This document shows, one piece after another, positions 6,062 to 32,622 of a stretch of 64,000 bases of DNA. Under the pieces are notes generated by a model. The model did not search any database, had not been told where the DNA came from, and saw only the letters and a list, made by a program, of their open reading frames with translations. Origin of the DNA: a phage; sequence record PV467749.1, one strand, 5' to 3'. The number at the start of each line of letters is the position of its first letter. Positions within the stretch are counted from its first letter, which is position 1. Position numbers and translations under genes: made by a program.

Positions 6062-6150
6062 TGCTTTTGTCAACAAATAACGTGGTAGTACTGAACTCGT
6101 TGTTGGTTCTAAGAGTTTTCCTGAAATTCAAATTATCGTGTACTAACAAA

Positions 6151-6180: not shown

Positions 6181-6445
6181 ATTCTACAGTATTAAGCTTC
6201 TGACAAATCATGTCAGCTTCAACACGGTCTTTATAATAAATGGTAAAACCAAATTTACCAGTTACTTTATACTCTTTACAAGTTAAACAATTTACAATGT
6301 AGTACTTGTTGTTTTGTGCTGAAAATCGTACTTCATGATTACGCATCACTGGTGGAGTAGTATTATCATTTAATACCATCATCACTAAGAGTACAAGAAT
6401 CACAACTGCAAATGGAATACCTAAAATCAAGAAAGTCAAAGTCAC
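6179..6445 (-). CDS. membrane-anchored hypothetical protein
   Basis: 88 aa; N-terminal TM segment LTFLILGIPFAVVILVLLVMMVL. Confidence 0.6.
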   Translation of the reverse strand: MTLTFLILGIPFAVVILVLLVMMVLNDNTTPPVMRNHEVRFSAQNNKYYIVNCLTCKEYKVTGKFGFTIYYKDRVEADMICQKLNTVE

Positions 6446-6918
6446 AACCCCTTATCATAAATGCAATTTACAATAATCCCAGCATCTTCCAGTACTTTAA
6501 TAGCTTCTGGTGGAGTGCGAGGATAACTTTTGTGATAAATCACGCGAGCAATACCACTTCCCGCGATCAACTTAGAACAAGTATAGCATGGTTGCAGCGT
6601 TGTGTAAAGTGTTGCTCCCTGACGTTCGGTAGGTGAACTGTATAACAATGCATTCATTTCAGCATGGATTTCATGGATATTACTCCATTCATGGTGTTCA
6701 TGCTTTGCGTCATCGCTAACCCAGTCTTGGAAACGTCCACCATTAACTAAGTGCTCATTAGCGTCACAGCAGTTAGGTTGTTTAGATGGAGTGCCATTAT
6801 AACCAGTACTCAATACTCGGTTATTTTTAACAATAACACAACCAACTTTCTGTGAAATGCATTTACTCTCTTCAGCCACGACTTCGGCTATCTTCAACCA
6901 CGTCAAGTGTTTCATCAT
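6442..6918 (-). CDS. dCMP (deoxycytidylate) deaminase
   Basis: 158 aa; zinc-binding motifs HAEMNAL and PCYTCSKLI. Confidence 0.9.
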   Translation of the reverse strand: MMKHLTWLKIAEVVAEESKCISQKVGCVIVKNNRVLSTGYNGTPSKQPNCCDANEHLVNGGRFQDWVSDDAKHEHHEWSNIHEIHAEMNALLYSSPTERQGATLYTTLQPCYTCSKLIAGSGIARVIYHKSYPRTPPEAIKVLEDAGIIVNCIYDKGL

Positions 6919-9586: not shown

Positions 9587-9967
9587 CAAGTTTCTTAAAA
9601 AATCTAGTAAACCGCAAATTGTATGTTTATTAAACATATCGTGGTCAATCTTTAACAACTTAACCATAGCATTATCATACACCGTAGAGTCGGTAATGTC
9701 AAACAAAGAATTTGTGTAATAACGTTCATTTTCTACATAAATGTATAATTCATTTGATTTGTCAAGATCTTCATAGAAGTTAGCATCAAAGTACTCTGCA
9801 TTTCCATCAATCCAAACCTCAACTGAATCATCATCTAAGCAGTAGTTTCTTGCTTCTTTTGAATATATTTCCAGCTTTCTGGCTGCACTGGAGTAATGTT
9901 TATAACCATTAATTACGTACTTTATTTCATCATTGTACTCAATTACATACACAACGATATTTTCCAT
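9584..9967 (-). CDS. hypothetical protein
   Basis: 127-aa ORF. Confidence 0.6.
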   Translation of the reverse strand: MENIVVYVIEYNDEIKYVINGYKHYSSAARKLEIYSKEARNYCLDDDSVEVWIDGNAEYFDANFYEDLDKSNELYIYVENERYYTNSLFDITDSTVYDNAMVKLLKIDHDMFNKHTICGLLDFLRNL

Positions 9968-10362
9968 CAGTACACCCCTATTGACGCAAGAGCATGAAGA
10001 AATTCATATCGTATACCAACTGGGATGTCATCAAAATCAATCTCAATCATTCTTAGTGAATTTGAAAATTGTTCGTATTTAAAGAACGTATTAATTGATA
10101 AAGTACTGAATGGTAACACATCACCACGACTATCATCATGTACAAGAACATACACCTTTCCCACAAATGAATCTAAATCGTCTGCTTGTCTTACATCACT
10201 GATGAAGTTATACCTATCTTTCATCACAGTGCCAGTACCATCAGGATTGTAGTATTGGGTTTTATCACAAGAGTATAGTATACGCATACCCCATCGTCGA
10301 TACAAATGACAGCTACCCAATATAACAAGCATTTTGTCTTTTATATGCAATGTATATATCAT
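9967..10362 (-). CDS. hypothetical protein
   Basis: 131-aa ORF; start uncertain. Confidence 0.55.
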   Translation of the reverse strand: MIYTLHIKDKMLVILGSCHLYRRWGMRILYSCDKTQYYNPDGTGTVMKDRYNFISDVRQADDLDSFVGKVYVLVHDDSRGDVLPFSTLSINTFFKYEQFSNSLRMIEIDFDDIPVGIRYEFLHALASIGVY

Positions 10363-10371
10363 AGTAATTCC

Positions 10372-11163
10372 TTAGATTTCAAATACAAATTTAGGATCGT
10401 AATCGAAGTTCTCACATGCACCACTGTAAGATTCATAACCTCTTGGATTACAAATGATACGAGTTTTCCCAATGTTGTAGTCAAAGCTACTATGAACGTG
10501 ACCATGAATCCAAACATCAGCACCCAAATCTTCGATGTACTGGTCCATATCAGAACAATAACATCCATTCAGTGAGTCATTCTTGTATCTCGGAGATACA
10601 CTCTGATAACTTGGTGCATGATGTGTTACCACCACAACCTTGAAATCATTATCATTCATTAGACGAACTGTGTTAACTGAATTTTTGATAAATTGTTTAT
10701 CCTGATGATGCATGAACTCAACATCATCAGGTTTGAGCTTACGTTTCCACGGTTCTGATGTTGTTCCATGACGAATGTGTTTATAATCATTCATCTTTTG
10801 TTGAGCATCAAACTTAACCAGTGCGTTGCCTTTATCAAAGTCAGTCCACAGTGTACTACCAACCAGCAGTACACCATCCAGCCATACAAATTTGTTTTGC
10901 AAAAAGATGAAATTTGGAATCTCATCTTGCATATCGGACAGTACTTTATTAGTCTTGTGAATGTTTGAACCGTAGTACTCATGATTACCAGGAACCAGTA
11001 CTACATTCTTGAACTGCTTGCACAGGGATTCGATACCAGTACGATAACGACTGCGTTTAGCTTCATCAAAGTCCCCTGCAATAATCAGTACTGTATCACT
11101 GTAATCACCACTATGGAGGTAATCAGTGCCACCGTGTACGTCTGACGTTACAACAAATTTCAT
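10372..11163 (-). CDS. calcineurin-like metallophosphoesterase
   Basis: 263 aa; DVHGG, GDFDE, GNHEYY, THHAP, GHVHSS motifs. Confidence 0.85.
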   Translation of the reverse strand: MKFVVTSDVHGGTDYLHSGDYSDTVLIIAGDFDEAKRSRYRTGIESLCKQFKNVVLVPGNHEYYGSNIHKTNKVLSDMQDEIPNFIFLQNKFVWLDGVLLVGSTLWTDFDKGNALVKFDAQQKMNDYKHIRHGTTSEPWKRKLKPDDVEFMHHQDKQFIKNSVNTVRLMNDNDFKVVVVTHHAPSYQSVSPRYKNDSLNGCYCSDMDQYIEDLGADVWIHGHVHSSFDYNIGKTRIICNPRGYESYSGACENFDYDPKFVFEI

Positions 11164-11182
11164 AATTACCTCCTATAAATGA

Positions 11183-12601
11183 TTAACCAAGTGATTCAAG
11201 AATACTGTTAGAGAACACCTCAACAGCACTATCACGAATTTCTAAGATACGAGTATAGTCGTCACAAGTGTTTTTGTCAAATCTAAATTCAATAAACACA
11301 GGTAAAAATAGTGATGGTTCGCCAGTACGCTGATCATACACTATATCATTGCACTCCACGGTTACTACTTGACCAATGAGTTCTTGCATTCTTTCCCAAA
11401 TGGTTTTAAACGTCCATTCTGCGTCTTTCTCTTTAATTCCAGTACCTACATTAACTTTCAATGTACCACAAGCACTTTCCAGTTGTAAAGAACCAAGGCT
11501 ACCTTTACGCTTACCTTCACCTTCATTGAAACCAACAATACGCAAGTCCAATTGCATTTTAAGTTTCATTTTCAATTGCTTAGGAGAAGTGTGAGATTTC
11601 CAGATACCATCTTCACATTTCAGTACTGAACCCTCTTCACCTTCGTTCATTAGTTCACTATTGTACTCAAATGCTTCTTTGATGTTTAGAACTTTACGGA
11701 ATCCAACCATACGAACAAAATCACTACCGAGTTCGTTAATTGCATCTACTAAGATCTCGCGGCGTTCTTTGCGTTTTACATTCCATACACCTTCACAAAA
11801 TGCATCATATGGAACAACATCCCAGAGAACGAATACAGTACGCATTGCTTCATTCTGACTGATGCTATCTTTACCAGCTTTCTGGATAATACCGTTACCA
11901 GTAGTGCGTGGGAGAATGGTTTCTCCATCATTGTCCAGTACTACACCTTCACCCATAAAGACTACACCACTACTAAAACGTTCATCTTTACTTTGGATGA
12001 TGTGAGCAAGACCTGCCATTTCACCATCACGACAACCCAGGAAGTCGTATAGTTTACCATTACGGGATGTAGAAGTTAATGAACCATTAATGACAACGTG
12101 GTTCAAGTACTGACCATCCATTTTAACTTCTGATATAGCATAACCATAATCTTTGAAGTTAATGTTCTTTGCAGTCTTTTTGTCAATCAACGAACAACGC
12201 ATGTATGGTTCGTCTTTGATAAAACCTTTCCCGAACACATCATTGCAGTTCTTTTCTTGGATACCACAATCAAGGTTCTTCGTGAGCATTTTACGAAGAA
12301 CTTCCTGGTCATCTTCTGATACAGAACCCAGCACTGAAGCAATGAAGTCACGCCCAGCATTTCCGGTCACACCACGTTTGTAAATGCATTCTAGCTTATC
12401 AATTGCTTCGTCTAATGTCATATGTTGGTATACATCATCAGCTTGTGGTAGCTTTTTATACCCACTTACAATTGAAGGGTCTAGTGTATATTTCAGTACT
12501 TTTTGTAATGTTTGGTTATCTTTGTTTTGTTCAAGGATAGCTTTTTTACCCAGAGTACTGCTAGTATTTTTAATGCTTTCAAGAATTGCTAAAATGCTCA
12601 T
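11183..12601 (-). CDS. ATP-dependent DNA ligase
   Basis: 472 aa; adenylation motif I EVKMDGQ (KxDG); size and layout like T4-type ligases. Confidence 0.85.
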   Translation of the reverse strand: MSILAILESIKNTSSTLGKKAILEQNKDNQTLQKVLKYTLDPSIVSGYKKLPQADDVYQHMTLDEAIDKLECIYKRGVTGNAGRDFIASVLGSVSEDDQEVLRKMLTKNLDCGIQEKNCNDVFGKGFIKDEPYMRCSLIDKKTAKNINFKDYGYAISEVKMDGQYLNHVVINGSLTSTSRNGKLYDFLGCRDGEMAGLAHIIQSKDERFSSGVVFMGEGVVLDNDGETILPRTTGNGIIQKAGKDSISQNEAMRTVFVLWDVVPYDAFCEGVWNVKRKERREILVDAINELGSDFVRMVGFRKVLNIKEAFEYNSELMNEGEEGSVLKCEDGIWKSHTSPKQLKMKLKMQLDLRIVGFNEGEGKRKGSLGSLQLESACGTLKVNVGTGIKEKDAEWTFKTIWERMQELIGQVVTVECNDIVYDQRTGEPSLFLPVFIEFRFDKNTCDDYTRILEIRDSAVEVFSNSILESLG

Positions 12602-12612
12602 TGTATATTCCC

Positions 12613-13815
12613 TTATAGATAATACTTTCCAATGTAAAGTTTATTACTTAGTGATAGCTGGACGTGACAAGGTTTTTCTTGGTAGTAACGAGTTGATGAT
12701 GTTTTATTTTCAGTCGGTGGGAAGAAAGGAGAACGGTATCCGTTCCATGTACCAAATGATACATGTTCGTTTAAATCCACATCCATTGTCATAATACCAT
12801 TAGCATCAATTTCAACTGGATACGCACTGTATCGTTCAAATACATCAGTGTATTGAAGAATATAATCACCATTACGACCATAATAACTTCTGGTTGTATT
12901 GTTCTTTACACCAAAGAACACACGATATGCTTGGTCACCAACTTTAGACATGAACGGTACGTTCTCGTTGAATCGTCCATTACTCATTATATCATCAGGA
13001 TTGATTTCTTCGTACTTTACTTTCAAATCTTGTGCTTTAAACGACTTATCACTTATCAGTACTGGAATATTGCTTTCACATAATGGGTTACTGCGATTTC
13101 GTTGGATATTTTGCCAAAATGCATTAGCTTTAACAATTTCATCTTGAACTGTAGTTTTTACATTCAGTGCAGCACTTGGTTCTAACGCATAAGTTTCAAG
13201 ACGAGCATTAAGAGCATATGTCCCACGAGTAGTATTATATACTAAGTGATACTTGGAACTCTTATCAGAAAATGAAAACTCTTTAGTTTTCTTGATACAA
13301 ATAGCATTTACTTTACCACAATAATAGTAATCTTCTTTATTGTGTCTAAAACCATCACCCACTTTCAATTTAGAAACAACTTCTTTTTGATGTTCTTTCT
13401 TATTCTCCTTCTCAACCAATTTAGCAAAGGTTTTAGTTTTACCGTTAATTAGTTCTAAACTATTATTAAAGAACATAGGTTCAACAAATACACCCTTAAC
13501 AATATCATTGTTGATGATAAGGTCGTTCATGTTTTTAGCACTCACCAAGAACTCGAAACCTTCAGGGTGACGTATGGTGAAGTATGTTTCGCGAGCATGA
13601 ACAGTGAGCTTATGTACCACAGAAAACCCAATTGTAGGCACATTATCAATCCATAGTGAAGGTAGATTGTTTTTCTTAGCCCAGTACTCGGCCTTTTCTT
13701 TTTTAGTCTCAAACGCTTTTGTGTGTGATTTTGTAGCATCTATAATGTAACCAGTAACTTGGTTATGATTTACATATGAACGAGCCACAAATAACTTCTC
13801 TGGAAAATCCATCAA
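12613..13815 (-). CDS. hypothetical protein
   Basis: 400-aa ORF. Confidence 0.7.
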   Translation of the reverse strand: MMDFPEKLFVARSYVNHNQVTGYIIDATKSHTKAFETKKEKAEYWAKKNNLPSLWIDNVPTIGFSVVHKLTVHARETYFTIRHPEGFEFLVSAKNMNDLIINNDIVKGVFVEPMFFNNSLELINGKTKTFAKLVEKENKKEHQKEVVSKLKVGDGFRHNKEDYYYCGKVNAICIKKTKEFSFSDKSSKYHLVYNTTRGTYALNARLETYALEPSAALNVKTTVQDEIVKANAFWQNIQRNRSNPLCESNIPVLISDKSFKAQDLKVKYEEINPDDIMSNGRFNENVPFMSKVGDQAYRVFFGVKNNTTRSYYGRNGDYILQYTDVFERYSAYPVEIDANGIMTMDVDLNEHVSFGTWNGYRSPFFPPTENKTSSTRYYQEKPCHVQLSLSNKLYIGKYYL

Positions 13816-14231
13816 ACAGTCCTCATTGTGCTAATTGCTTTTAATGTGTTAAACAATGCACCATATTTTACTTGCATTAGTTGATCCCCAGTAGGAAGAT
13901 TCATACGCATAACAGACATGTCTTCAACCATTTCAGATGTACATAGTACTGCTACACATGTAGTTGCATCATTTAATCCGGCTTCATTGAATTTAGCGAA
14001 TGGCACTTTTCCCTGCTTACAAAGGTCATCATAATAAGAATTTAACTTATCATGACCACCAGCATTTAGTACTACAATAGTTTCGTGGTCATAATACCAT
14101 TCATCAATAATAGTACTGAAAGCAGTACCTTCATATTCTTTAATTAGTTTTATGCCAGCATGAAATGCTTGAATGCCAGCTTGGACACCTTGACAGTACA
14201 TGTTTGTTAAACAATATAATTTCATTTCCAT
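13812..14231 (-). CDS. hypothetical protein
   Basis: 139 aa; faint resemblance to the Pth2-like pattern (QGVQAGIQAFHA) is not enough to call. Confidence 0.6.
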   Translation of the reverse strand: MEMKLYCLTNMYCQGVQAGIQAFHAGIKLIKEYEGTAFSTIIDEWYYDHETIVVLNAGGHDKLNSYYDDLCKQGKVPFAKFNEAGLNDATTCVAVLCTSEMVEDMSVMRMNLPTGDQLMQVKYGALFNTLKAISTMRTV

Positions 14232-14449
14232 ACCTCTTGTTTTTCTACAAACCCTTTACCATCACAATGTGGACAAGCATAATAACTGCGATAGTCTTCA
14301 GATGGAACTTGTTGTGTACCATTACATGTAGGGCACACTTTACGTGTACCAGAAATAATACGTTCATGGTGTTCAGCTTGTTTTGCTGAATCAAAAATAC
14401 GACCATCTTCGGTTTGGTATTTTTCTACCATAACTTGAATTACTTTCAT
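14222..14449 (-). CDS. small zinc-finger protein (DnaJ-type CxxCxG motifs)
   Basis: 75 aa; CPTCNGTQQV and CPHCDGKGFV. Confidence 0.6.
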   Translation of the reverse strand: MKVIQVMVEKYQTEDGRIFDSAKQAEHHERIISGTRKVCPTCNGTQQVPSEDYRSYYACPHCDGKGFVEKQEVWK

Positions 14450-14459
14450 TTCTATTTCC

Positions 14460-14729
14460 TTATAAAAATGTTAAATATTCAGTACTTAATTGTAATAATT
14501 TACCATCATATTCAATTTCAACATATACATCTTGGTCATAAACAGCAACTACACGACTAATAACTCCACTCTTCACCACATTCTTTTTGTAGTTGAATTC
14601 AACTGAGCAACCAATAAGTTTCTTTGATAGAATCTCACGTATTTGATTAGCATGGTCTTTTAGGATAGAATTAATAGATTTTTTCACAACATATCTATCA
14701 TTTAAGTATTTTTTAACTACATCATGCAT
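14460..14729 (-). CDS. small helix-plus-beta protein, unknown function
   Basis: Start moved to ATG 14729 (AAGG RBS), 89 aa; N-terminal helix then KLIGCSVEF... Confidence 0.55.
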   Translation of the reverse strand: MHDVVKKYLNDRYVVKKSINSILKDHANQIREILSKKLIGCSVEFNYKKNVVKSGVISRVVAVYDQDVYVEIEYDGKLLQLSTEYLTFL

Positions 14730-14733
14730 ATTA

Positions 14734-15477
14734 TTACCTTTTGAAGCGGTTAAATGAGTACTCATCTTTTTCTTTACGTAAGTATCTCATCCCTCCACTT
14801 TGGGGAGTTGCAAGAGTCAAATCACCAGTTAAGAACTGACTATCAATCCAGATACGATTACCATAAATGAGTGGGTCGGATACTGCGGTATGACCACTAA
14901 AGACGCAATGGATACCATCAAGTCTAGGGACGTAATATGTGTTATTTTTCTTGCAGTAGTCGAATGTATCACGGTCCCACAAGCACTTCTCAATTATATC
15001 AGCACTAAGTGATTTTGTCCCACTAACGAAACGTTCCCATGTTGTATATTCCAATGGAACACCAGCATGAACTAGTCCAATCTTCAATCCTCGGTGATTG
15101 ATTTGGATAATCATAGGGAGATCCTTTAAGTACTGACGGAAGAACTGTATACCTGTCTCACCAACTTCATCAATGAACTTATCTCCACCATTTTGTACCC
15201 AACAGTGATGCCAGTCACGGTGAGTTTCAGAATCAACACACATGATCTCGTGGTTCCCAGCAATCATAAAACGGTTTTCACCGAAAAGGAATTCAAACAG
15301 TAGTTTGGAATTCTGGTCACCACGGTCAATAACATCACCTACACAAAAAACATAGTCATTATTGGTGATACCAAATTCTTTCTTGGTAGCATCCCACAGT
15401 TTTCCGTTGCCGTGTAAATCACCAACGATATATAAATCTTTATCATCCGGTACTGTAACTTCCAAAAAATGTTTCAT
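14734..15477 (-). CDS. Ser/Thr protein phosphatase-family metallophosphoesterase
   Basis: Start at ATG 15477 (TAATG overlap), 247 aa; GDLHGN, GDVIDRGDQN, GNHE, HAG, GHT motifs. Confidence 0.85.
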   Translation of the reverse strand: MKHFLEVTVPDDKDLYIVGDLHGNGKLWDATKKEFGITNNDYVFCVGDVIDRGDQNSKLLFEFLFGENRFMIAGNHEIMCVDSETHRDWHHCWVQNGGDKFIDEVGETGIQFFRQYLKDLPMIIQINHRGLKIGLVHAGVPLEYTTWERFVSGTKSLSADIIEKCLWDRDTFDYCKKNNTYYVPRLDGIHCVFSGHTAVSDPLIYGNRIWIDSQFLTGDLTLATPQSGGMRYLRKEKDEYSFNRFKR

Positions 15478-15731
15478 TATTGTTCCAACCATATAATGTT
15501 AGTGTGTTTTGTAACTTGTGTTCCTGCAAAAGAACCATCTTTAAGATACGTATTAACTTTGAAACGCCATTCACCACCGCTAATATACATATCAGCGATA
15601 ATGTACTTCCCATAACCCCTTGAGTTTATCAAACGTACTTCTTGTCCAATATACTTCGGCTTCAAATCATTAATAAAATCATCAGCCAAAGACATAAGAT
15701 ATCGCAAATGTGAATAGTCGGTGTTGAACAT
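15477..15731 (-). CDS. small helix-plus-beta protein, unknown function
   Basis: Start moved to ATG 15731 (TAATG overlap), 84 aa: MFNTDYSHLRYLMSLADDF...KYIGQEVRL. Confidence 0.55.
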   Translation of the reverse strand: MFNTDYSHLRYLMSLADDFINDLKPKYIGQEVRLINSRGYGKYIIADMYISGGEWRFKVNTYLKDGSFAGTQVTKHTNIIWLEQ

Positions 15732-15946
15732 TATTTCTTTCTCTTGAAGTGGGATATAATATCTTTTGTTATTGAGATAAAAAGATACACCATAGTTACA
15801 GGCCAAATTATAGCCATCAGTGCTGCTGATTGTAGACTCATTGCAGTTATGATTTCATCTTTGAAACATTTCCAATTCAGTACTAGAAAGTTACATATAA
15901 ATGAGCAAAACGCAACAAATCCATATATTGCAAAAAAGGTAGTCAT
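15731..15946 (-). CDS. small membrane protein
   Basis: 71 aa, two hydrophobic helices. Confidence 0.5.
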   Translation of the reverse strand: MTTFFAIYGFVAFCSFICNFLVLNWKCFKDEIITAMSLQSAALMAIIWPVTMVYLFISITKDIISHFKRKK

Positions 15947-15948
15947 TA

Positions 15949-16281
15949 TTATTCCTCATCAACTTGAATAAGATATTCTAAACTTATTTCATCACCAAAG
16001 GCAGCGGCATCAATTGCATCGTGATTGATGTATTCTACTTGTGCAATTAAACGTATACCGTATTTCATAATTTCAATAATTCTCATTCTTGTATTGGGAT
16101 TTATGTACTGGTAGTATGATTCATACTCTGGATCATCGTCCATTTCCGCATATCGGTTGATGTACTCGTCAGTAAATTTTACTATCTTACCGACGAGTTC
16201 TGTTTCTGCACTTTTATAGAAATCATCTTTCATTTGATGCAACGCAATCAAGTACTGATTATATTGTGCAAGATGTTTCAT
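15949..16281 (-). CDS. hypothetical protein
   Basis: 110-aa ORF. Confidence 0.6.
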   Translation of the reverse strand: MKHLAQYNQYLIALHQMKDDFYKSAETELVGKIVKFTDEYINRYAEMDDDPEYESYYQYINPNTRMRIIEIMKYGIRLIAQVEYINHDAIDAAAFGDEISLEYLIQVDEE

Positions 16282-16283
16282 TG

Positions 16284-16880
16284 TTAATCACAGCTACCGG
16301 AACTAGAACTTGAGCTTGAATCACAACTAGAGCTATCATATGAACCAGTATCAGCAGAAGAGATATATGGTGTCACGACTGCTGCTGCGGTAGTTGCTGC
16401 AATAATATGGGAAGTATGGTCGTGTGTACCTTGTTGTGGTTCATCTTGGACTTTGTTTTTATTCTTCCCTTTAGTATAGCGAGCTTTCTTTGTAGTTTTG
16501 GTGTTCTTTGGTGCTTTAGTACTTTTCGGTGCTGCTTTAGGCTTTACTTCATTAACTACAGGAACAACAGTAACATTAACTTTAGGGTCAGATTCATCAA
16601 GTGCATTGTGAACATTCACTTGCATTTGAACTTCAACTTTAAGTTCTTCTTGTTCTTCAGGAATAACTTTTTCAGGTTCTGGTGTAACCTGATCACGTTT
16701 ATCATTAATCATGAAGTTGATATTACGTTCACCTAGCACTAATAAAGTAACGATGGTGAGTACTGGGGTTAGTACTAGACTAAGTAGTACATAGCCGATA
16801 ACACTACGATTGTAATTGTATGCAAGCATACCTGCAATAACTACACCAAGTACACTAATAACTGCTGCGATTGTTAACAT
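16284..16880 (-). CDS. membrane protein with Lys-rich linker and Ser/Cys-rich tail
   Basis: 198 aa; two N-terminal TM helices, KPKAAPKSTKAPKNTKTTKKARYTKGKNKNK, C-terminus SSCDSSSSSSSGSCD. Confidence 0.6.
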   Translation of the reverse strand: MLTIAAVISVLGVVIAGMLAYNYNRSVIGYVLLSLVLTPVLTIVTLLVLGERNINFMINDKRDQVTPEPEKVIPEEQEELKVEVQMQVNVHNALDESDPKVNVTVVPVVNEVKPKAAPKSTKAPKNTKTTKKARYTKGKNKNKVQDEPQQGTHDHTSHIIAATTAAAVVTPYISSADTGSYDSSSCDSSSSSSSGSCD

Positions 16881-17184
16881 ATTCTACTCCTTTGTATATA
16901 AATTTACCAATATCTTCGATGTATAAACAGATTCCATCTCGTTCATTTAACACAAGCCAATCACCAAAACCACAACTGATGTTGCATATATTAAATTCTT
17001 CAATACCATCCGGTGAATACGCAATGAATGGACATATTTCATCTGATATACCATTTACATAGTTATTACATATTAAATCAAATGTATGTGAACTATAAGA
17101 ATTATCAGTACTGAAAATGTGCATTAATGAACTAGATAGAATTACTATTGTTTTTTCCCACATTTTTAAAAAATCGTTATTCAC
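16855..17184 (-). CDS. hypothetical protein
   Basis: 109-aa ORF downstream of a promoter. Confidence 0.55.
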   Translation of the reverse strand: MNNDFLKMWEKTIVILSSSLMHIFSTDNSYSSHTFDLICNNYVNGISDEICPFIAYSPDGIEEFNICNISCGFGDWLVLNERDGICLYIEDIGKFIYKGVEYVNNRSSY

Positions 17185-17215
17185 AACAACTACTCCATGT
17201 CAGTGTTGTAATGAA

Positions 17216-17243
17216 ATTATATCACCGAATCAAGATATGTCTC
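17216..17243 (-). promoter_or_regulatory. sigma70-like promoter with extended -10
   Basis: Minus strand GAGACA-N16-TATAAT with TGA; -35 overlaps the TGA stop of 17242..17547. Confidence 0.55.
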
Positions 17244-17547
17244 ATGAGATTCGCATTTCATCCAGATATAAACTACATGCTTCGAAATTGTTGTCAGCAC
17301 TTAAACCTAAATCAACCATCAGACCACAATGCGTTCCACAGAATTTCTTTATGTATAGTTTCTTATTGTTTGTACCTAAGTCGTATACATATTCATTTTC
17401 GAAAATAGTTTTTAAATCATTACAAATACTTTTTACTATCTTCATTACATCATTATGATACTCATATGGTATTCCATCTAGTTCATCAATGATAATAGCA
17501 AAACCATTGTCATAGTACTTTAGTTTATTGAATGTTTGTATATCCAT
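17242..17547 (-). CDS. hypothetical protein
   Basis: 101-aa ORF. Confidence 0.6.
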   Translation of the reverse strand: MDIQTFNKLKYYDNGFAIIIDELDGIPYEYHNDVMKIVKSICNDLKTIFENEYVYDLGTNNKKLYIKKFCGTHCGLMVDLGLSADNNFEACSLYLDEMRIS

Positions 17548-17844
17548 TTAATATATAATCTCACTTACTTCTATGGTGTAGACACCATCATCAGTCATTA
17601 ATCTAACTGCAACTTTAATATTACTAGACATTCGTGTAACTATCAATCCAATAATTATACCATTCTTTAAAGTACCATTATGGTATCTAACTTTTACTTC
17701 AGTTTTATTATCAATTAAGTATCTTCTAATTATGTGTATTTCCGTTCTAAACAGTTCTAAATAAACTTCACTATACTCCTTATCAGAACCATCAGCACAG
17801 CTATACAATAAATGTACCTGTTCTAACAAAAGTTTTAAATTCAT
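17548..17844 (-). CDS. small helix-plus-beta protein, unknown function
   Basis: 98-aa ORF. Confidence 0.6.
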   Translation of the reverse strand: MNLKLLLEQVHLLYSCADGSDKEYSEVYLELFRTEIHIIRRYLIDNKTEVKVRYHNGTLKNGIIIGLIVTRMSSNIKVAVRLMTDDGVYTIEVSEIIY

Positions 17845-18143
17845 AAGAACCTCACAGATTTAATATTACTTGTTACATGTTTAAACACAGTGTTATTGAA
17901 TACATAACAAATAGTATTAAGAGATTTATAAAAATTAACATCAGTTATTACTGCTTTGGAACCATTGATTAAGCACTGTGATGACGGTAATTTATTTTCT
18001 AATATATTCTTTTCATCTGAACAAAGTGTTCCAATACAATCATAATATAAAGGCTCACCAACTTTATCAGTACTAAGAAAATCGAAAGCAAGATCATCTA
18101 TTAGTTTTATGTAATTGAATAAATTTTGATAGTACTCATTCAT
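17841..18143 (-). CDS. hypothetical protein
   Basis: Start moved to ATG 18143 (8-nt overlap with the upstream stop), 100 aa. Confidence 0.55.
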   Translation of the reverse strand: MNEYYQNLFNYIKLIDDLAFDFLSTDKVGEPLYYDCIGTLCSDEKNILENKLPSSQCLINGSKAVITDVNFYKSLNTICYVFNNTVFKHVTSNIKSVRFL

Positions 18144-18390
18144 TGTCAATCCTCTTGAATTTAGCATTATTCGAATAAGTATATGAATGTCCAAAATCAT
18201 TTACACCATGCACATTCAATACACCGTCGATGAAATAGATTCGGTCAATGGTGAGTTCACGTTTATAATCCGAATCATCATACCAGCACAGAACACGAAT
18301 ACCTTTATACTTTGTAGTTAGCTCTTTTTCTAATGTAACTAAGTACTCAATATAACTTTTGAATAGCTCTAAGTCCTGCTCAAACATCAC
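18136..18390 (-). CDS. small helix-plus-beta protein, unknown function
   Basis: 84 aa; helix then KYKGIRVLCWYD. Confidence 0.6.
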   Translation of the reverse strand: MMFEQDLELFKSYIEYLVTLEKELTTKYKGIRVLCWYDDSDYKRELTIDRIYFIDGVLNVHGVNDFGHSYTYSNNAKFKRIDNE

Positions 18391-18647
18391 TGTTCCTCGT
18401 ATAATTCTATGTCATCGACACCAACTTGGCGAATTGCATTGCTTCTTTTGAATGTATCTTTTTCAAATAAACACACAGTTAAACGTATTTCACACTTCAA
18501 TGCACTGTAATAAATCATATCAATAACACCATATGTTTCATACATTTCTACGTATACATTTCGTCCTAAGTACTTTTCTTCTAAATCAGTAATTAGACTA
18601 TTGATAAGATTACCTATCTGTGATATATCTGTGTGAAATTTATCCAT
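18387..18647 (-). CDS. small helix-plus-beta protein, unknown function
   Basis: 86 aa; helix then KYLGRNVYVEMY. Confidence 0.6.
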   Translation of the reverse strand: MDKFHTDISQIGNLINSLITDLEEKYLGRNVYVEMYETYGVIDMIYYSALKCEIRLTVCLFEKDTFKRSNAIRQVGVDDIELYEEQ

Positions 18648-18805
18648 TACAATAATCCTCTCACATAAAACATTGATGAAAATAGATAATCTTCAGTACT
18701 AGAATTTAGTAGTTTATCAAAACTATAATTTTTATGCTTATTTTCATACAAAGACATTCTATAGTATCGTTCTATATTTTCTAAGTAGTCTTTTCGTAAT
18801 AACAT
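18647..18805 (-). CDS. possible small protein (52 aa), below the ORF-track cutoff
   Basis: ATG 18805, MLLRKDYLENIERYYRMSLYENK...; TAATG overlap with the next start; no clear RBS. Confidence 0.35.
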   Translation of the reverse strand: MLLRKDYLENIERYYRMSLYENKHKNYSFDKLLNSSTEDYLFSSMFYVRGLL

Positions 18806-18841
18806 CTGCGTTGTTACATTCACTATAATGTACCTTAAAAG

Positions 18842-18869
18842 AAAAAGGGACCAATATATGATCCCTTTT
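18842..18869 (-). terminator. possible intrinsic terminator (weak stem)
   Basis: AAAGGGA...TCCCTTT stem with adjoining T-run, just after the pseT stop. Confidence 0.4.
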
Positions 18870-18872
18870 GTA

Positions 18873-19805
18873 TTAGAAATTTCCTTCAGCCACTTGGAAA
18901 ACTTTCAACCCAAGTAACTTACGCCACATGAATACAACTTGATTGCGGTCATCATAAACCTTTTTAACATCGTAATGATCAACCACATTTTTCATGTACA
19001 GGTCGAATTTTACAACATCATCAGGACGTTTATCATCAATGTCTCGCATAAACAATGCATCATAAGGAACACCCCAATTCTTAAGCCACTGTTCGGTATC
19101 AGCACGACACCCTTCAGTACGCCCACTCATGACGATAATCTTGCGTTTATGAAAAACTGCTTCTGCGATAATAGACAAAATAACTTCGTCGTCTGGTGTA
19201 TCCTGGAGTACAGTACTTTCATCGAACGGGTTACGTCCCCATTTATGAGCAAGAGTACCGTCGATATCAACGATAATAGCAGCTTCTCGTGAATTACCAT
19301 AGTAACCAATGTGTAATGCCTTACTATAATAGTACGTATCTGCCATAGTGTCAATGATATTATCTTGTACTGAACGCTCACGCTGGAGGTTATATTTCTT
19401 ACAAAGTTTTACGAACTCTTTAATCTTAAAGAATTCATGAACATCTGCACCACGGTCTTCATTAGGTACAAAATCATCATAGAAGTTCTTTTCTTTGTAA
19501 TCATAACCATTATCTATAGCCCATACTTTCCATAGATTACGGAAATGTTGTTTAAGGTTCGTATCGGATATGATGATGTTCCAACCATTCTCTGCTGCTG
19601 AATTTGCTGCACTGAACTGTAAATTAGTTACGTACTGCTCATTAGCATCGTTGAATTTGTAAGCATCATGTGACCCAGCCATAGATTCACGAATATCATC
19701 ACGGTTGATGTTGATAGTCTTGGATTTGGCTTTTTTAATCTCTTGCACTGCCCATGTAGTTTTACCACACCCAGGCAATCCAACTGTTAGTGTGATAGTT
19801 GGCAT
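18873..19805 (-). CDS. pseT: polynucleotide 5'-kinase/3'-phosphatase (T4 PseT-like)
   Basis: 310 aa; P-loop GLPGCGKTT, NINRDDIRE, HAD motif IVDIDGTLA, C-terminus DDRNQVVFMWRKLGLKVFQVAEGNF closely parallels T4 Pnk as I recall it. Confidence 0.9.
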   Translation of the reverse strand: MPTITLTVGLPGCGKTTWAVQEIKKAKSKTININRDDIRESMAGSHDAYKFNDANEQYVTNLQFSAANSAAENGWNIIISDTNLKQHFRNLWKVWAIDNGYDYKEKNFYDDFVPNEDRGADVHEFFKIKEFVKLCKKYNLQRERSVQDNIIDTMADTYYYSKALHIGYYGNSREAAIIVDIDGTLAHKWGRNPFDESTVLQDTPDDEVILSIIAEAVFHKRKIIVMSGRTEGCRADTEQWLKNWGVPYDALFMRDIDDKRPDDVVKFDLYMKNVVDHYDVKKVYDDRNQVVFMWRKLLGLKVFQVAEGNF

Positions 19806-19808
19806 CCT

Positions 19809-20120
19809 TTAATCCTCTAAAAATTTAACATGCTCTATATTATGATAGGTGAGCCATTCCTGTGGTGTTCCCTTGCGTATTAAAACACCAATATACGCAA
19901 TACCATTAATTAGACCATTACTATCAGTATTCACATCAACTTTCACAATCTCGGAATCGTACCAGTGTTTGAATGTGTAATCCCAACATCTGACTTTCTT
20001 TCCAATAAGATTGCTCTTGTATTTGTCAATCATTTCATCGACGATAGTTTGTACTGAATTTTTAATTTCAGCTTCTACTGACTTTATATGTAGTAAATTA
20101 CTTTGTGCATTGTTTATCAT
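19809..20120 (-). CDS. small helix-plus-beta protein, unknown function
   Basis: Start moved from a TTG to ATG 20120, 103 aa; helix then NLIGKKVRCWDY. Confidence 0.55.
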   Translation of the reverse strand: MINNAQSNLLHIKSVEAEIKNSVQTIVDEMIDKYKSNLIGKKVRCWDYTFKHWYDSEIVKVDVNTDSNGLINGIAYIGVLIRKGTPQEWLTYHNIEHVKFLED

Positions 20121-20334
20121 TGTATTTCCCAATCCCAAATCGCTTGGAGATTTTCACAAGTACAGATTCATCACAACGAATACTAGCAGTATCATTGGAT
20201 GAACTGTACTTTAATGGGGTCCACTGTAATTGAGATTCTTCTAGGAACTTGATACATCTGAAATAATCTTTCAAGGAAAGAAATTTAACTACTGACATAT
20301 CCTGAACAATACTATGCTGAACTTCAACTTTCAT
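20098..20334 (-). CDS. hypothetical protein
   Basis: 78-aa ORF. Confidence 0.5.
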   Translation of the reverse strand: MKVEVQHSIVQDMSVVKFLSLKDYFRCIKFLEESQLQWTPLKYSSSNDTASIRCDESVLVKISKRFGIGKYNDKQCTK

Positions 20335-20343
20335 ATGAACTCC

Positions 20344-20601
20344 TTATAGTGGGTCGAATTTATTTTCACGTTTCGATGTATAGCGAGTTACATCATGTAT
20401 TCTCGGCTTAACACCTTTTGGTTTCCTTTTCTTCTTGTATTCAGTACTACTACACCCGAAAGTATTCTCGATTCGTTTCTTACTAATCTTCACACCTTTC
20501 TTAGAGCGTTTGTGCTGTAATTCATCGATTTCTTCTTGTATTTTCCTGAATTCTGTCGGAGAAAGGGAACCGTCATTTTTATACTTAGGTTTAGCCATCA
20601 C
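20344..20601 (-). CDS. small Lys/Arg-rich basic protein
   Basis: 85 aa, MMAKPKYKNDGS...KKKRKPKGVKPR. Confidence 0.55.
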   Translation of the reverse strand: MMAKPKYKNDGSLSPTEFRKIQEEIDELQHKRSKKGVKISKKRIENTFGCSSTEYKKKRKPKGVKPRIHDVTRYTSKRENKFDPL

Positions 20602-20627
20602 TTCTCCTTGTGCTAGGCTAGATAGTA

Positions 20628-21770
20628 CTAAAAATCCTTTAGTACAATTTTCATGTACTTAATAAGAGTCTCTTTGTAATCGACTTTCTTATTGTTGTAC
20701 ATTGCAAAGGCCAAGCCCTGACGATTCAGTTCATTAGTTAAACACTCCTGAACCTTCTTAGCGAATTCCTTTCGCTCCAAGTGCTTGTGTTCCTTGACGA
20801 AGCTTTCAACTTCATCTTGTAAAGCATTATAGCACGAAAAGACTAGTTGTTCCATTCTTAATATCTTTTGGGTAGCATATTCGTCAGTACTGAACAACTG
20901 TTTTAAATCATCACTCGAACCATTTAATACAGCTTCATATAAATGGGAATCGATTATAATACTGTCTTTCGTTAAATGCAAAGAACAATACCAGTCGGTT
21001 TTGATTTTGCACATTGTACCATTATTTAGGATGCACACAAAACCTTCAATGTCAAGCATTTTCTTAACTTCTTCAACACTTTCTTTGAATGTAGCACGAA
21101 CAGGGAAAGTGTAATGAATATCTTTACCTGTCATGTTAGTACTGTACTGTGCAAGGCATGGAAACTTGTTACGTAATGCAGAACCACATAATAGTTCACC
21201 ACTCTTGCGATGGCGAACGTTTAGTACAAATATTTGTTCAACCTGGTATGGTAATACAATACGGTACTCTGGACTTGTATACTCCAGATTAACAGTATAG
21301 CCCAAACGGTCTGCTTCGTCAATGTATTGATACAAATTTTGGTTCTCATTGAGAAGACGAGTACTGTTAATCGCATGGTCTGAATACAATGCAGTATGTG
21401 ATTTACAACGAATTACACCATCATTATCACGGTAAGTACTGATTACTGAACCATCCAACTTAGGCATCACTACTGCAATGTCATCGAATGTGGTATCAGC
21501 AGGGAACATTGTAGCAGGATTTTCGTAAGCATTGAAGAACTTTTTCATAGTACGAGCAGCACAACGAATCATATCACCGTCTTCATCAATTTCCCACATA
21601 GAACCACGGGTTTCTAATGCATTGGGTTGCATGAAATCGGTATATGATGCTAGACGATAACTGAATACACGATACGTTCCACCAGCAGGACTTTTATGAT
21701 CCACATAAAAGAAAGCCTCACGGGTATTACATAAGTGCATTAAATCTTCATATATTTGTAAAAGGGTCAT
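20628..21770 (-). CDS. rnlA: RNA ligase 1 (T4 RnlA-like)
   Basis: 380 aa; FFYVDHKSPAGGTYRVFSYRLASYTDF parallels the T4 Rnl1 N-terminus as I recall it; adenylation motif PKLDGS. Confidence 0.85.
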   Translation of the reverse strand: MTLLQIYEDLMHLCNTREAFFYVDHKSPAGGTYRVFSYRLASYTDFMQPNALETRGSMWEIDEDGDMIRCAARTMKKFFNAYENPATMFPADTTFDDIAVVMPKLDGSVISTYRDNDGVIRCKSHTALYSDHAINSTRLLNENQNLYQYIDEADRLGYTVNLEYTSPEYRIVLPYQVEQIFVLNVRHRKSGELLCGSALRNKFPCLAQYSTNMTGKDIHYTFPVRATFKESVEEVKKMLDIEGFVCILNNGTMCKIKTDWYCSLHLTKDSIIIDSHLYEAVLNGSSDDLKQLFSTDEYATQKILRMEQLVFSCYNALQDEVESFVKEHKHLERKEFAKKVQECLTNELNRQGLAFAMYNNKKVDYKETLIKYMKIVLKDF

Positions 21771-30546: not shown

Positions 30547-31092
30547 TTATAGACAGTTAAGTACTATGTCATCAAAAGTACTACTGTCAATGTTGTATTC
30601 ATATAAAAATTTAAAATGTGATCCATAACGCATCATCAGATTAAACTCTTCTTCAGTATTAAATTTGTAATCATGAAGAGTTTCAAGGGTACATGTTAAA
30701 CCTAAAAACTCAATAATTTCTGATGTTACATCATTTCCTGAATTGAAGTATTTAACCCAAACACATTTTCCTTGTGGGTTGAATTTTCTATATTCTCCTT
30801 CTAGTTCTCCATTGACGATATGTGCTTTCGCACTGATTAGATTATTACTATAACGCTCTTCGTAGTAGTTCCCATAACGAGCTTTAAGAATTGTAGGCTT
30901 CTTGGTTGGGAATAACTTAATGGAAGTTAATTCAAAACCGCACTGCAACTCTTTGATGTACGAAATACATCCCTTTTCTTTAATCACAACAAAACCAGTA
31001 AAATTCTCTTGGTCTTGGTTCTGATTGTCTGAATCAACAAATTCTAGTGTTTTATAAGTGACGCTTTTAGATTTTTTAATAAATGACATCAT
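30547..31092 (-). CDS. hypothetical protein (possible MORN/YwqK-like repeats)
   Basis: Track start is GTG 31143; ATG 31092 has an AGGA RBS (181 aa). NGELEGEYRKFNPQGKCVWVKYFNSG resembles MORN-variant repeats. Confidence 0.5.
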   Translation of the reverse strand: MMSFIKKSKSVTYKTLEFVDSDNQNQDQENFTGFVVIKEKGCISYIKELQCGFELTSIKLFPTKKPTILKARYGNYYEERYSNNLISAKAHIVNGELEGEYRKFNPQGKCVWVKYFNSGNDVTSEIIEFLGLTCTLETLHDYKFNTEEEFNLMMRYGSHFKFLYEYNIDSSTFDDIVLNCL

Positions 31093-31156
31093 TATTCCTA
31101 TGGAAACATCAATGACTGTACATGGCGTTGACTTCATCAACACCAGTCGAATTATA

Positions 31157-31741
31157 CACGCTTCGCATGTCTAATTCGACGAAAGTACTATGATTTGTTT
31201 TAATTAATATTGACGGGGTTTGCTTGAGCATATTTCATCCCCCCGCAGGGGAAAGAACAAAAAAAGTTTGACGCTGGTGGCCTTCACATAGTTCATATCA
31301 CGAATTCTCTTACGAGGCGAAAGCGGGTTGCTCTGTTTCTCTCTATCGCGGTTCTTGTAGCAACGGTCGTCGGTCTTAAACATCCCGACACATAATACAA
31401 ATACCATATGACCAGTACTTGTATTTGATTTCACGAATTTTGGACGCAACTATATTGTATAAATTACGACCGCAAATTTCTCATGAAATCTCCCTTAGAT
31501 AATTGGTAAGGTGCGATCCTTATATGTCTATCGAGGAACTCTCTTTATCCTATTGGAGTTCTTTATACAGCCGCATTGCCGTGAGTGGTTCAAACTATGC
31601 CATCATCTAACGGGTTTCATTTGCTGTTCGTACTGAAAGGACTACTCATCTACCCTCTACTTTTCGAGTGGATTAGGCTTTAATCATTTCCATATGGAAC
31701 CTTTCAGGATTAAAAAAAGGCGACAACATATTCTGCTGTCA
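31157..31741 (-). ncRNA. candidate structured noncoding RNA or cis-acting element (family not recognised)
   Basis: About 600 nt with no credible ORF; visibly higher GC than its surroundings; own promoter upstream; several complementary segments and a 12-nt palindrome; 3' end undefined. Confidence 0.35.
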
Positions 31742-31743
31742 CC
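31712..31743 (-). terminator. intrinsic terminator
   Basis: Minus strand GGTGACAGC-AGAATAT-GTTGTCGCC (two G-U pairs, which form only in the minus-strand transcript) followed by TTTTTTT. Confidence 0.75.
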
Positions 31744-31747
31744 TTAC

Positions 31748-31775
31748 ATTATATCATAAACTTATGGTATGTCTC
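31748..31775 (-). promoter_or_regulatory. sigma70-like promoter with extended -10
   Basis: Minus strand GAGACA-N16-TATAAT with TGA; -35 overlaps the TGA stop of 31774..32622; sits directly upstream of the terminator hairpin. Confidence 0.5.
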
Positions 31776-32622
31776 AGTTGTATTCTGTTTTTTCAGTGAA
31801 ATTAGTTAAGATATCTGCACTTAAGCTTCTCATAACCTCAATCTTACTTGGCATGAACCTGTGCTTGTTTTTTACATACAACTCATCATCTTCAATGAAA
31901 GATGTGAACATGAATACCATATCTTCACGTGGAATTGAGAGAATATTACAGTTTTCATTTTCAGCAACAGGGGAATCATTGTAGTACTTAGAGAATGCAG
32001 TACTTTGACGACCGATTATGATAGAATTTCGGATTAGAAAATTACTACAGTACTGAAAATCTTTGTAGTACTTGTCAAGGATATATGGCATTATCGCTTC
32101 TTTCACTTCTTCATATCCATTTGAACTATCAATTGCAGTACAATAATCTTCTCGGTCTTTATTCCCTCGATGATTATCAAACTCGTACTCAAAGAATAAA
32201 TTTTCATTTAATGAATTATTTGAACCAACTGATCCACTATAGTATGATTTTCTATCATTCATTCGATCATCGGGGCATGATGCATACATAGAAATGTCAT
32301 GTGTTGACGTACCGATATAAATTTTCTTAGTAATGTGATTGTACGCGATGTAATCATAATCTTGTACTCCAGTGAGCATTAACTGGAACATCAATTCATC
32401 AGGAACATCAATCAACGGGTACTCAAACTTCGAATATCTACTACGACAGAAATTCTTTTCAAATGCTCGATATGCGATGAAATCTTTTAGGTTTGTAATA
32501 GATTCATGCTCATGTGTATTACTGGTGCGTACATTGACATTAGTAGACGAGCAATACCCTTCAGATTCTTCTGTGTAGTCATAATAACCCTTACTGTAGT
32601 CAACGATTAGATAAAGTTTCAT
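31774..32622 (-). CDS. hypothetical protein
   Basis: 282-aa ORF. Confidence 0.7.
   Translation of the reverse strand: MKLYLIVDYSKGYYDYTEESEGYCSSTNVNVRTSNTHEHESITNLKDFIAYRAFEKNFCRSRYSKFEYPLIDVPDELMFQLMLTGVQDYDYIAYNHITKKIYIGTSTHDISMYASCPDDRMNDRKSYYSGSVGSNNSLNENLFFEYEFDNHRGNKDREDYCTAIDSSNGYEEVKEAIMPYILDKYYKDFQYCSNFLIRNSIIIGRQSTAFSKYYNDSPVAENENCNILSIPREDMVFMFTSFIEDDELYVKNKHRFMPSKIEVMRSLSADILTNFTEKTEYN

Follow-up and report, generated by a model that had tools for sequence, protein, structure and literature searches.

The large ornate RNAs ROOL, GOLLD and OLE are encoded by phages and prophages, and ROOL and GOLLD have no known protein partner or function (PMC12286853). In the jumbo phage PA5oct, regions of 236-619 nucleotides (nt) that are free of open reading frames (ORFs) are transcribed as putative long non-coding RNAs (lncRNAs), ncRNA001-004, two of which account for 1.2-5.1% of the phage reads over three time points (PMC7318152). 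We describe here an element in a 64,000-nt stretch of phage DNA (sequence record PV467749.1; the whole stretch is referred to as the window), where a gap between two minus-strand genes holds what we take, with a probability of about 70%, to be an autonomous gene for a new class of large non-coding RNA (ncRNA), most likely a folded RNA acting in trans. This DNA belongs to a coliphage of the genus Asteriusvirus, a group of Rak2-like jumbo myoviruses with genomes of about 350 kb. The window is 99.7% identical to Escherichia phages Ecwhy_1 and EC.P1, and its positions 30900-32000 are 99.3-99.8% identical to Ecwhy_1, fEgEco12, EC.P1 and other Asteriusvirus. PA5oct is a distant jumbo relative of this phage, and its lncRNAs are a precedent for abundant large ncRNAs in the clade. 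In the scheme that we favor, minus-strand transcription would run from about 31741 through at least 31203 and would be driven by a phage-type sigma70-like promoter at 31776-31748. Its conserved fold consists of three covarying domains joined by at least three pseudoknots, with helices capped by GNRA and UNCG loops, and the RNA would be expressed as a discrete molecule acting through this fold. Its role could be that of an RNA scaffold, a component of a ribonucleoprotein (RNP) or a ribozyme-like molecule, along the lines of ROOL, GOLLD and OLE.

The element resembles ROOL and GOLLD in being several hundred nt long, phage- and prophage-encoded and self-contained in varied mobile contexts, and in having an elaborate covarying structure with multiple pseudoknots. 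Explicit structures of two domains, the 5' domain and the central domain (Table 1), were scored on minus-strand alignments of homologs, with controls in which the pairing partners were slid by 1-3 columns and with 500 shuffles; the alignments are imperfect at P2, at P5b and in the linker. Together the two domains comprise 74 base pairs in 13 helices, which are 94-98% paired in 27-76 distinct homologs as against 30-49% in the slid controls. Compensatory changes were found in 52 of the 74 pairs, and at least three of the helices (PK1, Pc and P6) are pseudoknots, which are 99.5-100% paired. In the central domain 96.5% of the cells for its 41 pairs were paired, compared with about 40% after sliding, and 31 pairs showed compensatory changes; the corresponding values for the 33 pairs of the 5' domain were 93.8%, 30-42% and 21. 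None of the 500 shuffles did as well in either domain. When 76 distinct sequences, taken from phage, metagenome and bacterial contigs, were aligned with a covariance model, 98.1% of the cells were paired and 24 of 28 pairs showed compensatory changes, although this alignment was fitted to the model and is therefore biased towards the structure. The helices are thus maintained by compensatory change at levels above the controls, as is expected of a structured ncRNA.

The strand of the presumed RNA follows from several observations. Wobble cells on the minus strand were G·U in 99 cases and A·C in 8, and GNRA and UNCG loops were present on the minus strand only. This G·U excess and the stable tetraloops, together with the promoter, identify the minus strand as the one that carries the RNA. 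A plus-strand RNA was considered and is ruled out by the same three features and by the folding z-score given below; RNAalifold energies alone did not discriminate between the strands.

A first-pass annotation of the window, made by eye from the sequence, had proposed a large structured RNA in a G+C-elevated island. The G+C content of 31200-31710 is indeed 0.41, compared with 0.334 in the window as a whole, and the compensatory covariation, pseudoknots, minus-strand G·U bias and GNRA/UNCG loops support the structural proposal. Every pairing and repeat that it listed is exact in the sequence, and four of them are helices that covary in homologs: CTGAAAGG (31633-31640) with CCTTTCAG (31700-31707) is P1, the 12-nt palindrome TTCCATATGGAA (31688-31699) is P2, GTCGG (31369-31373) with CCGAC (31385-31389) is Pb, and GTTGCT (31327-31332) with AGCAAC (31359-31364) is Pc. 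The C6 run at 31239-31244 had been given two mutually exclusive G4 partners. The hairpin with the G4 at 31248-31251 is conserved, but most homologs have UCUC in place of the G4 at 31215-31218, so that the alternative hairpin is not. The direct repeat AT[A/T]TCACGAATT at 31295-31306 and 31428-31439 corresponds to the common 3' end (AAAUUCGUG) of helix P2b and of a movable hairpin module.

By contrast with these likenesses in design, the element has no sequence or structure match to the ROOL and GOLLD models of Rfam. Rfam 15, which covers ROOL, GOLLD, HEARO, OLE, raiA, group I and II introns, RNase P, tmRNA, 6S, T-box and riboswitches, gave no hits at the gathering threshold in the whole window or in seven homolog loci. 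At E≤10 the interval 31000-31850 yielded three noise hits of 14-21 bits, where gathering thresholds are 51-60, and two of these fell on a terminator hairpin. ARAGORN detected neither a tRNA gene nor a tmRNA gene anywhere in the window. The first-pass reading that no tRNA, tmRNA, RNase P, 6S or group I intron is present therefore agrees with both programs, and the Rfam search that it had suggested, including ROOL, GOLLD and HEARO, returned no family. The hosts also differ, being Enterobacteriaceae and Xanthomonas jumbo myoviruses here and Lactobacillales, rumen or marine lineages for ROOL and GOLLD; unlike those RNAs, the element is not located by tRNA islands and occurs as 4-5 diverged paralogs per genome. 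A comparison of covariance model R1 with PA5oct ncRNA001, ncRNA002 and ncRNA004 (E≤10) gave no match, and the invariant motifs of the family are absent from them. The phi29 pRNA is likewise a phage-encoded folded RNA with its own promoter (in phi29 an early one) and with loop-loop pairing, but it is about 174 nt long as against about 520 nt here and shows no similarity; in addition, the loop-tail pairing PK1 is satisfied within each molecule and not between paralogs, in contrast to phi29 pRNA. We know of no RNA requirement in packaging motors of the T4 type. Searches of open-access PMC and bioRxiv found no published description of the element. Having no Rfam family, no homology to the PA5oct lncRNAs and no published description, it is rated here as a putative new RNA class by the measure of Rfam 15 and that literature, its function and expression being predicted.

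When the gap was used as query in a sensitive blastn search, 62 phage records were matched, each with 4-5 separate match sites. The core (approximately 31200-31683) retains about 70% nucleotide identity in distant genera whose flanking DNA does not align. It was matched in Cronobacter GAP32, Salmonella Munch, Serratia BF, Erwinia, Yersinia, Pectobacterium CBB and Xanthomonas jumbo phages, and relatives carrying it include Mimasvirus, Eneladusvirus and Munch-like phages. The homologs sit in unannotated gaps of about 700 bp, in which some genomes carry short spurious ORF calls. In TH47, whose complete genome is 99% identical to the window, the element occurs four times, always on the same strand (near 49.5, 146, 262 and 346 kb), and covariance model R1 recovered exactly those four with 105-120 bits. 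A possible fifth Asteriusvirus copy, a 13.6-bit R1 match in TH47, falls within an ORF of 236 amino acids (aa) and is noise. The four paralogs (c1-c4) are mutually 61-74% identical; the window copy is c1, and no repeat of the element was found inside the window, its paralogs being located outside. The family extends over all Rak2-like genera, the related ones having four or five copies, partly at syntenic sites. For GAP32, Munch, BF and XbC2 the best match occupies a syntenic site, downstream of the Dam methylase cluster; for Yersinia fHe-Yen9-04 and CBB it is a different paralog, beside endonuclease VII. The copies are dispersed at a spacing of 55-140 kb, and in all jumbo contigs with several copies one strand is shared by all of them. 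Paralogs c1, c2 and c4 lie between co-oriented genes, and c3 lies between genes of the opposite strand. Paralog c2 (L005 48040-48560; at about 146 kb in TH47) has no TGrrAC/TATAAT promoter and begins immediately behind the stop codon of the ORF upstream of it. In this copy P1 is CUGUAGC/GCUACAG, P2 is nearly absent, and a near-consensus TTGACA-N17-TAGAAT is found after the RNA, before the next gene.

Copies were also found on bacterial chromosomes. Bacterial genomes and metagenomes were scanned once each with a 20-base degenerate motif and then with a covariance model, which gave 93 hits, several of them chromosomal. Full-length homologs occur as single copies by integrases in small islands of Serratia, Enterobacter, Silvania and E. 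coli. The complete chromosome of Serratia fonticola GTA-SR07 has a full-length copy with a promoter motif TGAAAC-N17-TATACT, flanked on one side by two ParB/RepB-like genes and a large serine recombinase and on the other by the host rof-tilS. Two near-identical tandem copies of host rof are present at the edge of this island (L086 61-5500), which looks like a duplication from integration. In Silvania, Enterobacter chinensis, Buttiauxella and metagenome contigs there is a different arrangement, consisting of an integrase (tyrosine or serine), the RNA, a converging 208-aa ORF and a 286-aa gene. The 208-aa ORF is a CI-like S24/helix-turn-helix repressor by Pfam in Silvania and Enterobacter chinensis only (L083 and L088), and is matched by size and position only in the other islands. 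The 286-aa protein, which has no Pfam or PHROG match, is followed by a 188-aa protein in six loci with this module (L079, L083, L088, L095, L114 and L147). The RNA of the module is 97-100% identical across host genera, and the integrase type is interchangeable. The module may represent a satellite of Rak2-like phages or a small temperate element associated with them.

The copy in E. coli LR-29-1 (L154, 13930-14545; 121 bits) has a promoter motif TGGGAT-N17-TGATATAAT and lies in an island of about 10.7 kb (9755-20650) between ffs (4.5S RNA) and ybaA. This island contains an IS3-split tyrosine integrase and hypothetical genes, as well as a DuOB/DUF488/DUF4326 trio that matches the PADLOC candidate defence system PDC-M45. 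The RNA was present in 2 of 5426 complete E. coli genomes, and no match was found in 72,556 plasmid records. One 2.8-kb contig (L087) comes from a metagenome-assembled genome binned as Clostridium sp. UBA10317; its RNA is 98-99% identical to the enterobacterial island type, and its placement is probably a binning artefact and not an occurrence in Firmicutes. Island RNAs are 54-70% identical to the phage paralogs and form lineages of their own. Since this divergence is comparable to that between paralogs, the lineages are old. No protein partner shared by the neighbors compared was seen, as the 282-aa phage neighbor and the 286- and 303-aa island neighbors are mutually dissimilar. The islands may be satellites, prophage remnants or defence islands. 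With the island copy as query, 71 phage records were matched and, among the matches listed, all were Rak2-like jumbo phages; an organism tally for this query added ten Klebsiella phages.

The features of the locus are collected in Table 1. The body of the ncRNA has the same limits in the full-length homologs of the Serratia fonticola chromosome and the E. coli island. Short variants of P5 (loci L045 and L076) are capped on the minus strand by a UUCG or UACG tetraloop, and the P4b loop is GUAA, GAAA or GCAA among homologs. In the linker, covarying columns of alignment A3 are 477-482/500-505, 434-438/447-450, 391-394/441-444 and 452-454/518-520; a 3-bp tertiary pair is, like PK2, less well supported. 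The module hairpin is present in 0-2 copies at two alternative insertion points among paralogs.

Table 1. Positions in the window of the putative ncRNA gene, its structural parts and its neighbors, in the direction of the minus strand
Feature	Position	Strand	Remarks
Upstream neighbor gene, 282 aa	31774..32622	minus	no Pfam domain; PHROG 15199, no assigned function
Putative promoter	31776-31748	minus	TGAGAC-N17-TGATATAAT; directed into the RNA; activity predicted from the motif
-35-like TGAGAC	31776-31771	minus	17-nt spacer before extended -10
Extended -10 TGATATAAT	31756-31748	minus	motif
Intrinsic terminator of upstream gene (31774..32622)	31710..31745	minus	12-bp stem 31745-31717 and U-run; terminator scan
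Conserved ncRNA body	31203..31707	minus	P1 5' strand through terminal motif CCCCGUCAAUA; about 0.5 kb
5' domain	31562..31709	minus	seven listed helices; junctions GAUGAGNAG, GAAACCCGU, CGGCAAUGCGGC invariant
P1	31707-31700 / 31640-31633	minus	5' domain
P2 hairpin	31699-31688	minus	5' domain
P3	31676-31666 / 31657-31650	minus	5' domain
P6 pseudoknot	31645-31643 / 31632-31630	minus	crosses P1; 100% paired
P4	31627-31623 / 31571-31567	minus	100% paired
P5	31613-31606 / 31584-31579	minus	5' domain
P5b	31602-31600 / 31588-31586	minus	5' domain
Linker region	31426..31561	minus	covarying column pairs in alignment A3
Hairpin GAACUC/GAGUUC	31561-31556 / 31541-31536	minus	linker
Hairpin UAAGG/CCUUA	31522-31507	minus	linker; loop AUCGCA 31517-31512
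PK2, loop AUCGCA with UGCGGUC	31517-31512 / 31474-31468	minus	4 bp, 1 covarying; weaker support
Invariant CUAAGGGAG	31498-31490	minus	linker
Movable module hairpin	31474-31442	minus	linker; conserved loop UACAAUAUAG
Central domain	31288..31425	minus	41 pairs, 7 helices; R1 match 113 bits
Pa	31425-31415 / 31404-31394	minus	central domain
PK1, Pa loop with 3' tail	31412-31406 / 31298-31292	minus	7 bp; 99.5% paired, 6/7 covarying
Pb	31389-31385 / 31373-31369	minus	central domain
Pc pseudoknot GUUGC/GCAAC	31364-31360 / 31331-31327	minus	central domain
P2b	31350-31346 / 31303-31299	minus	central domain
P3b	31343-31339 / 31323-31319	minus	central domain
P4b	31316-31314 / 31309-31307	minus	central domain; GUAA tetraloop cap
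3' region	31203..31287	minus	alignment A6
Motif CCAGCGUCAAAC	31277-31266	minus	3' region
U7 run	31265-31259	minus	3' region
G-rich hairpin CCCC-UGC-GGGG	31251-31239	minus	UUCAU/AUGAA extension in most copies
Terminal invariant CAAAyCyCGUCAr	ends ~31208	minus	3' region
Spacer to next gene (about 105 nt)	31094..31202	minus	A+T-rich, then two hairpins; conserved within paralog type only
Spacer hairpins	within 31094..31202	minus	GUCGAAUUA...UAAUUCGAC; GGUGUUGA-UGAAG-UCAACGCC
Downstream neighbor gene	30547..31093	minus	start codon 31093-31091; no Pfam domain; PHROG without assigned function

An invariant G6 run is found near the 3' end of the RNA. In paralogs c2-c4 a terminator-like hairpin and a run of U6-7 are inserted before the G-rich hairpin, whereas the window copy, of the c1 type, lacks them. 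Beyond the terminator-like hairpin of c2-c4, conservation goes on through the G-rich hairpin and then CAAAyCyCGUCAr, and the chromosomal homologs have the same end; for these reasons the body was placed at 31707-31203. The spacer of other paralog types has a different conserved pair of hairpins, one with the loop ACGnAGUGA and one of the form UUGAC-hairpin-GGCAAAU. In alignment A6 the c2-c4-type hairpins lie 60-130 nt downstream of the RNA, the second as AAAAUUCUUUGAC, a covarying stem and GGCAAAU. The UUGAC of this downstream hairpin could be a -35 box, some copies having TTGACT-N17-TAnnnT; alternatively, both hairpins could be part of the RNA.

The promoter of local consensus that the first-pass annotation had placed at the upstream, minus-strand end of the island was confirmed as a motif, and almost all homologs have an equivalent motif at this end (alignment columns 755-800). 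In most copies the -10 box is 15-25 nt upstream of P1, so that the expected start would be about 8-18 nt upstream of P1, which fits a dedicated promoter. The consensus TGrGAC-N16-18-TGnTATAAT recurs some ten times elsewhere on the window's minus strand (60548, 46476, 35240, 34106, 29686, 20854, 17244, 15022, 5966 and 676; matched as TGrGAC/TTGnAC-N16-18-TATAAT, mostly with TG upstream of the -10), and these promoter-like sites suggest many short transcription units in this gene-dense region. The motif belongs to a promoter class known from phage CBB, which has a -35 TGAAACG and a classic -10, occurs also in GAP32 and is enriched near DNA-synthesis genes (PMC5259590).

A terminator hairpin separates the -10 box from the RNA body in c1-type paralogs, and in these alone; the same hairpin carries a terminator annotation in G17, GAP32 and Munch. 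The -10 box ends 3 nt ahead of the terminator stem, and promoter and terminator overlap (31710-31776, minus strand), as they also do at the syntenic copy of GAP32, Munch, BF and XbC2. The start site of the window copy is predicted at about 31741, some 7 nt past the -10 and within the 5' arm of the terminator stem. Without the hairpin base, transcripts initiated there might continue past this point, so that the upstream mRNA could terminate at this site while the promoter-initiated RNA escapes.

The interval 31094-31773 has no conserved ORF, in line with the original judgement that the island holds none that is credible. It had also been called the only long ORF-free stretch of the window. It is the longest without any ORF of at least 60 aa by a mechanical criterion, but at a cut-off of 90 aa two others, 18201-18872 and 5899-6441, are similar in size; neither of these has a match to covariance model R1. 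The one ORF in the island, 81 aa from a TTG at 31204..31449, had been doubted, and rightly so. Of 43 aligned homologs, 40 have 2-10 stops in the same frame, no non-Asteriusvirus homolog and none of the paralogs has the ORF intact, homolog lengths across it differ by non-multiples of three, and single-nucleotide indels fall within conserved blocks of the alignments. A protein-coding gene, which would show a conserved frame and indels in threes, was therefore rejected, and the suggestion of a decayed foreign gene is refuted by the unconserved reading frame. Mini-ORFs inside the RNA with a Shine-Dalgarno sequence and AUG (after CUAAGGGAG and at GGGGGGAUG) are not conserved. As to the neighbors, the G17 locus (L001) has two genes, G17_00510 (3866-4720) and G17_00514 (5897-6745). 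The 849-bp G17_00514, located about 1.2 kb further upstream than the 282-aa gene, matches that gene in length and may be its paralog.

A stand-alone, trans-acting RNA is favored because the RNA is the sole feature common to unrelated contexts, has its own promoter and, at c3, opposes the direction of the adjacent genes. Several points weigh against this. Paralog c2, with no promoter and abutting an ORF stop, indicates that not all copies are independent transcription units, and 4-5 diverged, co-stranded, syntenic paralogs are easier to explain by a role in cis than as redundant trans-acting RNAs. In the window copy, the terminator hairpin between the -10 box and the RNA may attenuate promoter-driven transcripts. 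The covariation controls do not model phylogeny as R-scape would. The comparison of folding energy with shuffled controls, a check proposed in the first-pass annotation, came out only marginally in favor: the minus strand was slightly better than its shuffles (z = -1.83) and the plus strand gave a weak -0.34, so the case rests on covariation and not on folding energy. Lastly, no published expression data for Rak2-like phages were found in the literature searched.

The rival that best survives is a replication-origin primer, in which a transcript of about 0.5 kb would form an RNA-DNA hybrid, be processed by RNase H and prime the leading strand in the manner of ColE1 RNA II or T4 oriF and oriG. 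The 350-kb genome would then have four or five co-oriented origins, and each small island one. The dispersal of the copies on one strand in each genome examined, partly syntenic across genera, suggests a position-dependent role, and dispersed copies recall the multiple origins of T4. The layout also resembles that of RNA II as generally described, with a sigma70-type promoter, a structured transcript of about 550 nt and a G6 run near the 3' end; A+T-rich DNA follows the RNA. T4 R-loop origins oriF and oriG use middle-mode promoters. The association of the promoter class with DNA-synthesis genes in CBB (PMC5259590) points the same way, as does the lack of any protein common to the phage and island loci compared, which would fit a protein-independent origin module; possible action with no dedicated initiator protein would be a further resemblance to the ColE1 and T4 systems. 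The element shares no sequence with RNA II or the T4 origin transcripts, however, and has far more tertiary structure, with at least three pseudoknots and long invariant junctions. Such dense structure is, to our knowledge, not a feature of either. Neither an antisense gene resembling RNA I nor another copy-control element of that type was seen, the island RNA lies between integrase and repressor and not in a recognizable replication module, and the plasmid records, where such a primer might occur, gave no match. We regard an origin primer as unlikely.

It is more doubtful still that the RNA is a cis-acting leader of downstream co-stranded genes, whether a riboswitch of giant size, a sensor resembling the T-box or a put- or EAR-type processive antiterminator. 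Co-oriented genes do lie 105-150 nt downstream of c1, c2 and c4, the terminator-like hairpin and U-run after the fold of c2-c4 have the layout of an aptamer and expression platform, and c1 has no obvious terminator before the next gene. A leader role is disfavored because c3 meets plus-strand genes head-on in both Asteriusvirus and CBB, the genes after c1, c2 and c4 have no obvious mutual similarity (in an informal comparison), and, in most of the islands examined (the six loci listed above), the RNA and the CI-like repressor gene are convergent. In addition, the gene after c2 has a possible separate promoter (TTGACA-N17-TAGAAT), and conserved sequence extends past the terminator-like hairpin. 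A size of 0.5 kb far exceeds that of any riboswitch known to us. The constant position before co-oriented, related genes that is typical of riboswitches and leaders was not found.

We consider it very improbable that the element is a mobile or self-processing RNA, that is, a degenerate intron-like or ribozyme-based selfish element spread among intergenic sites and islands. There are several copies per genome, and these occur in unrelated mobile contexts with their own promoter and with a hairpin module at varying positions, but the paralogs are old and some are syntenic across genera, which means that they have not moved recently. No Rfam intron or ribozyme matched at E≤10 except for 14-bit Hatchet noise, and there was no sign of a host gene split by the element, of a target-site duplication or of an accompanying reverse transcriptase or endonuclease. 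CUGAnGA-like strings occur on the plus strand; a hammerhead reading of them fails since they are on the wrong strand, their core is not conserved and the essential A9 is missing in the window copy. Least probable of all are a signal at the DNA level (a protein-binding origin, a pac-like site or a regulatory array) and a protein gene that has decayed or been recoded. The recurrent GACG-containing motifs (yTGACGrG, TGACGmTG and GGACGsA) and the 81-aa ORF might speak for these, but pairing is kept by compensatory changes, the strand-asymmetric wobbles are explicable neither in duplex DNA nor in coding sequence and do not support the pac-type element or DNA origin offered in the first-pass annotation, and the frame is broken, with indels that are not multiples of three. 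Both kinds of explanation are essentially excluded.

Large RNAs as structured as the one proposed here are rare, and nearly all that are known are ribozymes, RNP cores or, lately, RNA-only cages. In at least 62-71 deposited jumbo-phage genomes the element occupies gaps that are blank or wrongly annotated as a 'hypothetical protein'. Because it is carried by easily grown coliphages (121Q, PBECO4, phAPEC6 and G17) and by chromosomes of E. coli, Serratia and Enterobacter, it is immediately accessible to genetics, structure probing and cryo-electron microscopy. It is conceivable, though we put this forward only tentatively, that the RNA is a self-sufficient module common to Rak2-like phages and islands, serving either as a protein-independent replication or maintenance element, a primer like ColE1 RNA II that would give the giant phage genome multiple origins, or as a new ribozyme or RNA-only assembly. 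The 4-5 diverged paralogs might cooperate in such a ribozyme or assembly, and the islands sharing the RNA may be satellites or anti-phage islands of Rak2-like phages. If true, jumbo phages of Enterobacteria would have their first large RNA class with a catalytic, architectural or origin role, and the RNA would provide a molecular link between these phages and chromosomal islands; the integrase-adjacent island copies with the phage promoter type hint at phage-satellite or phage-defence relations of jumbo phages.

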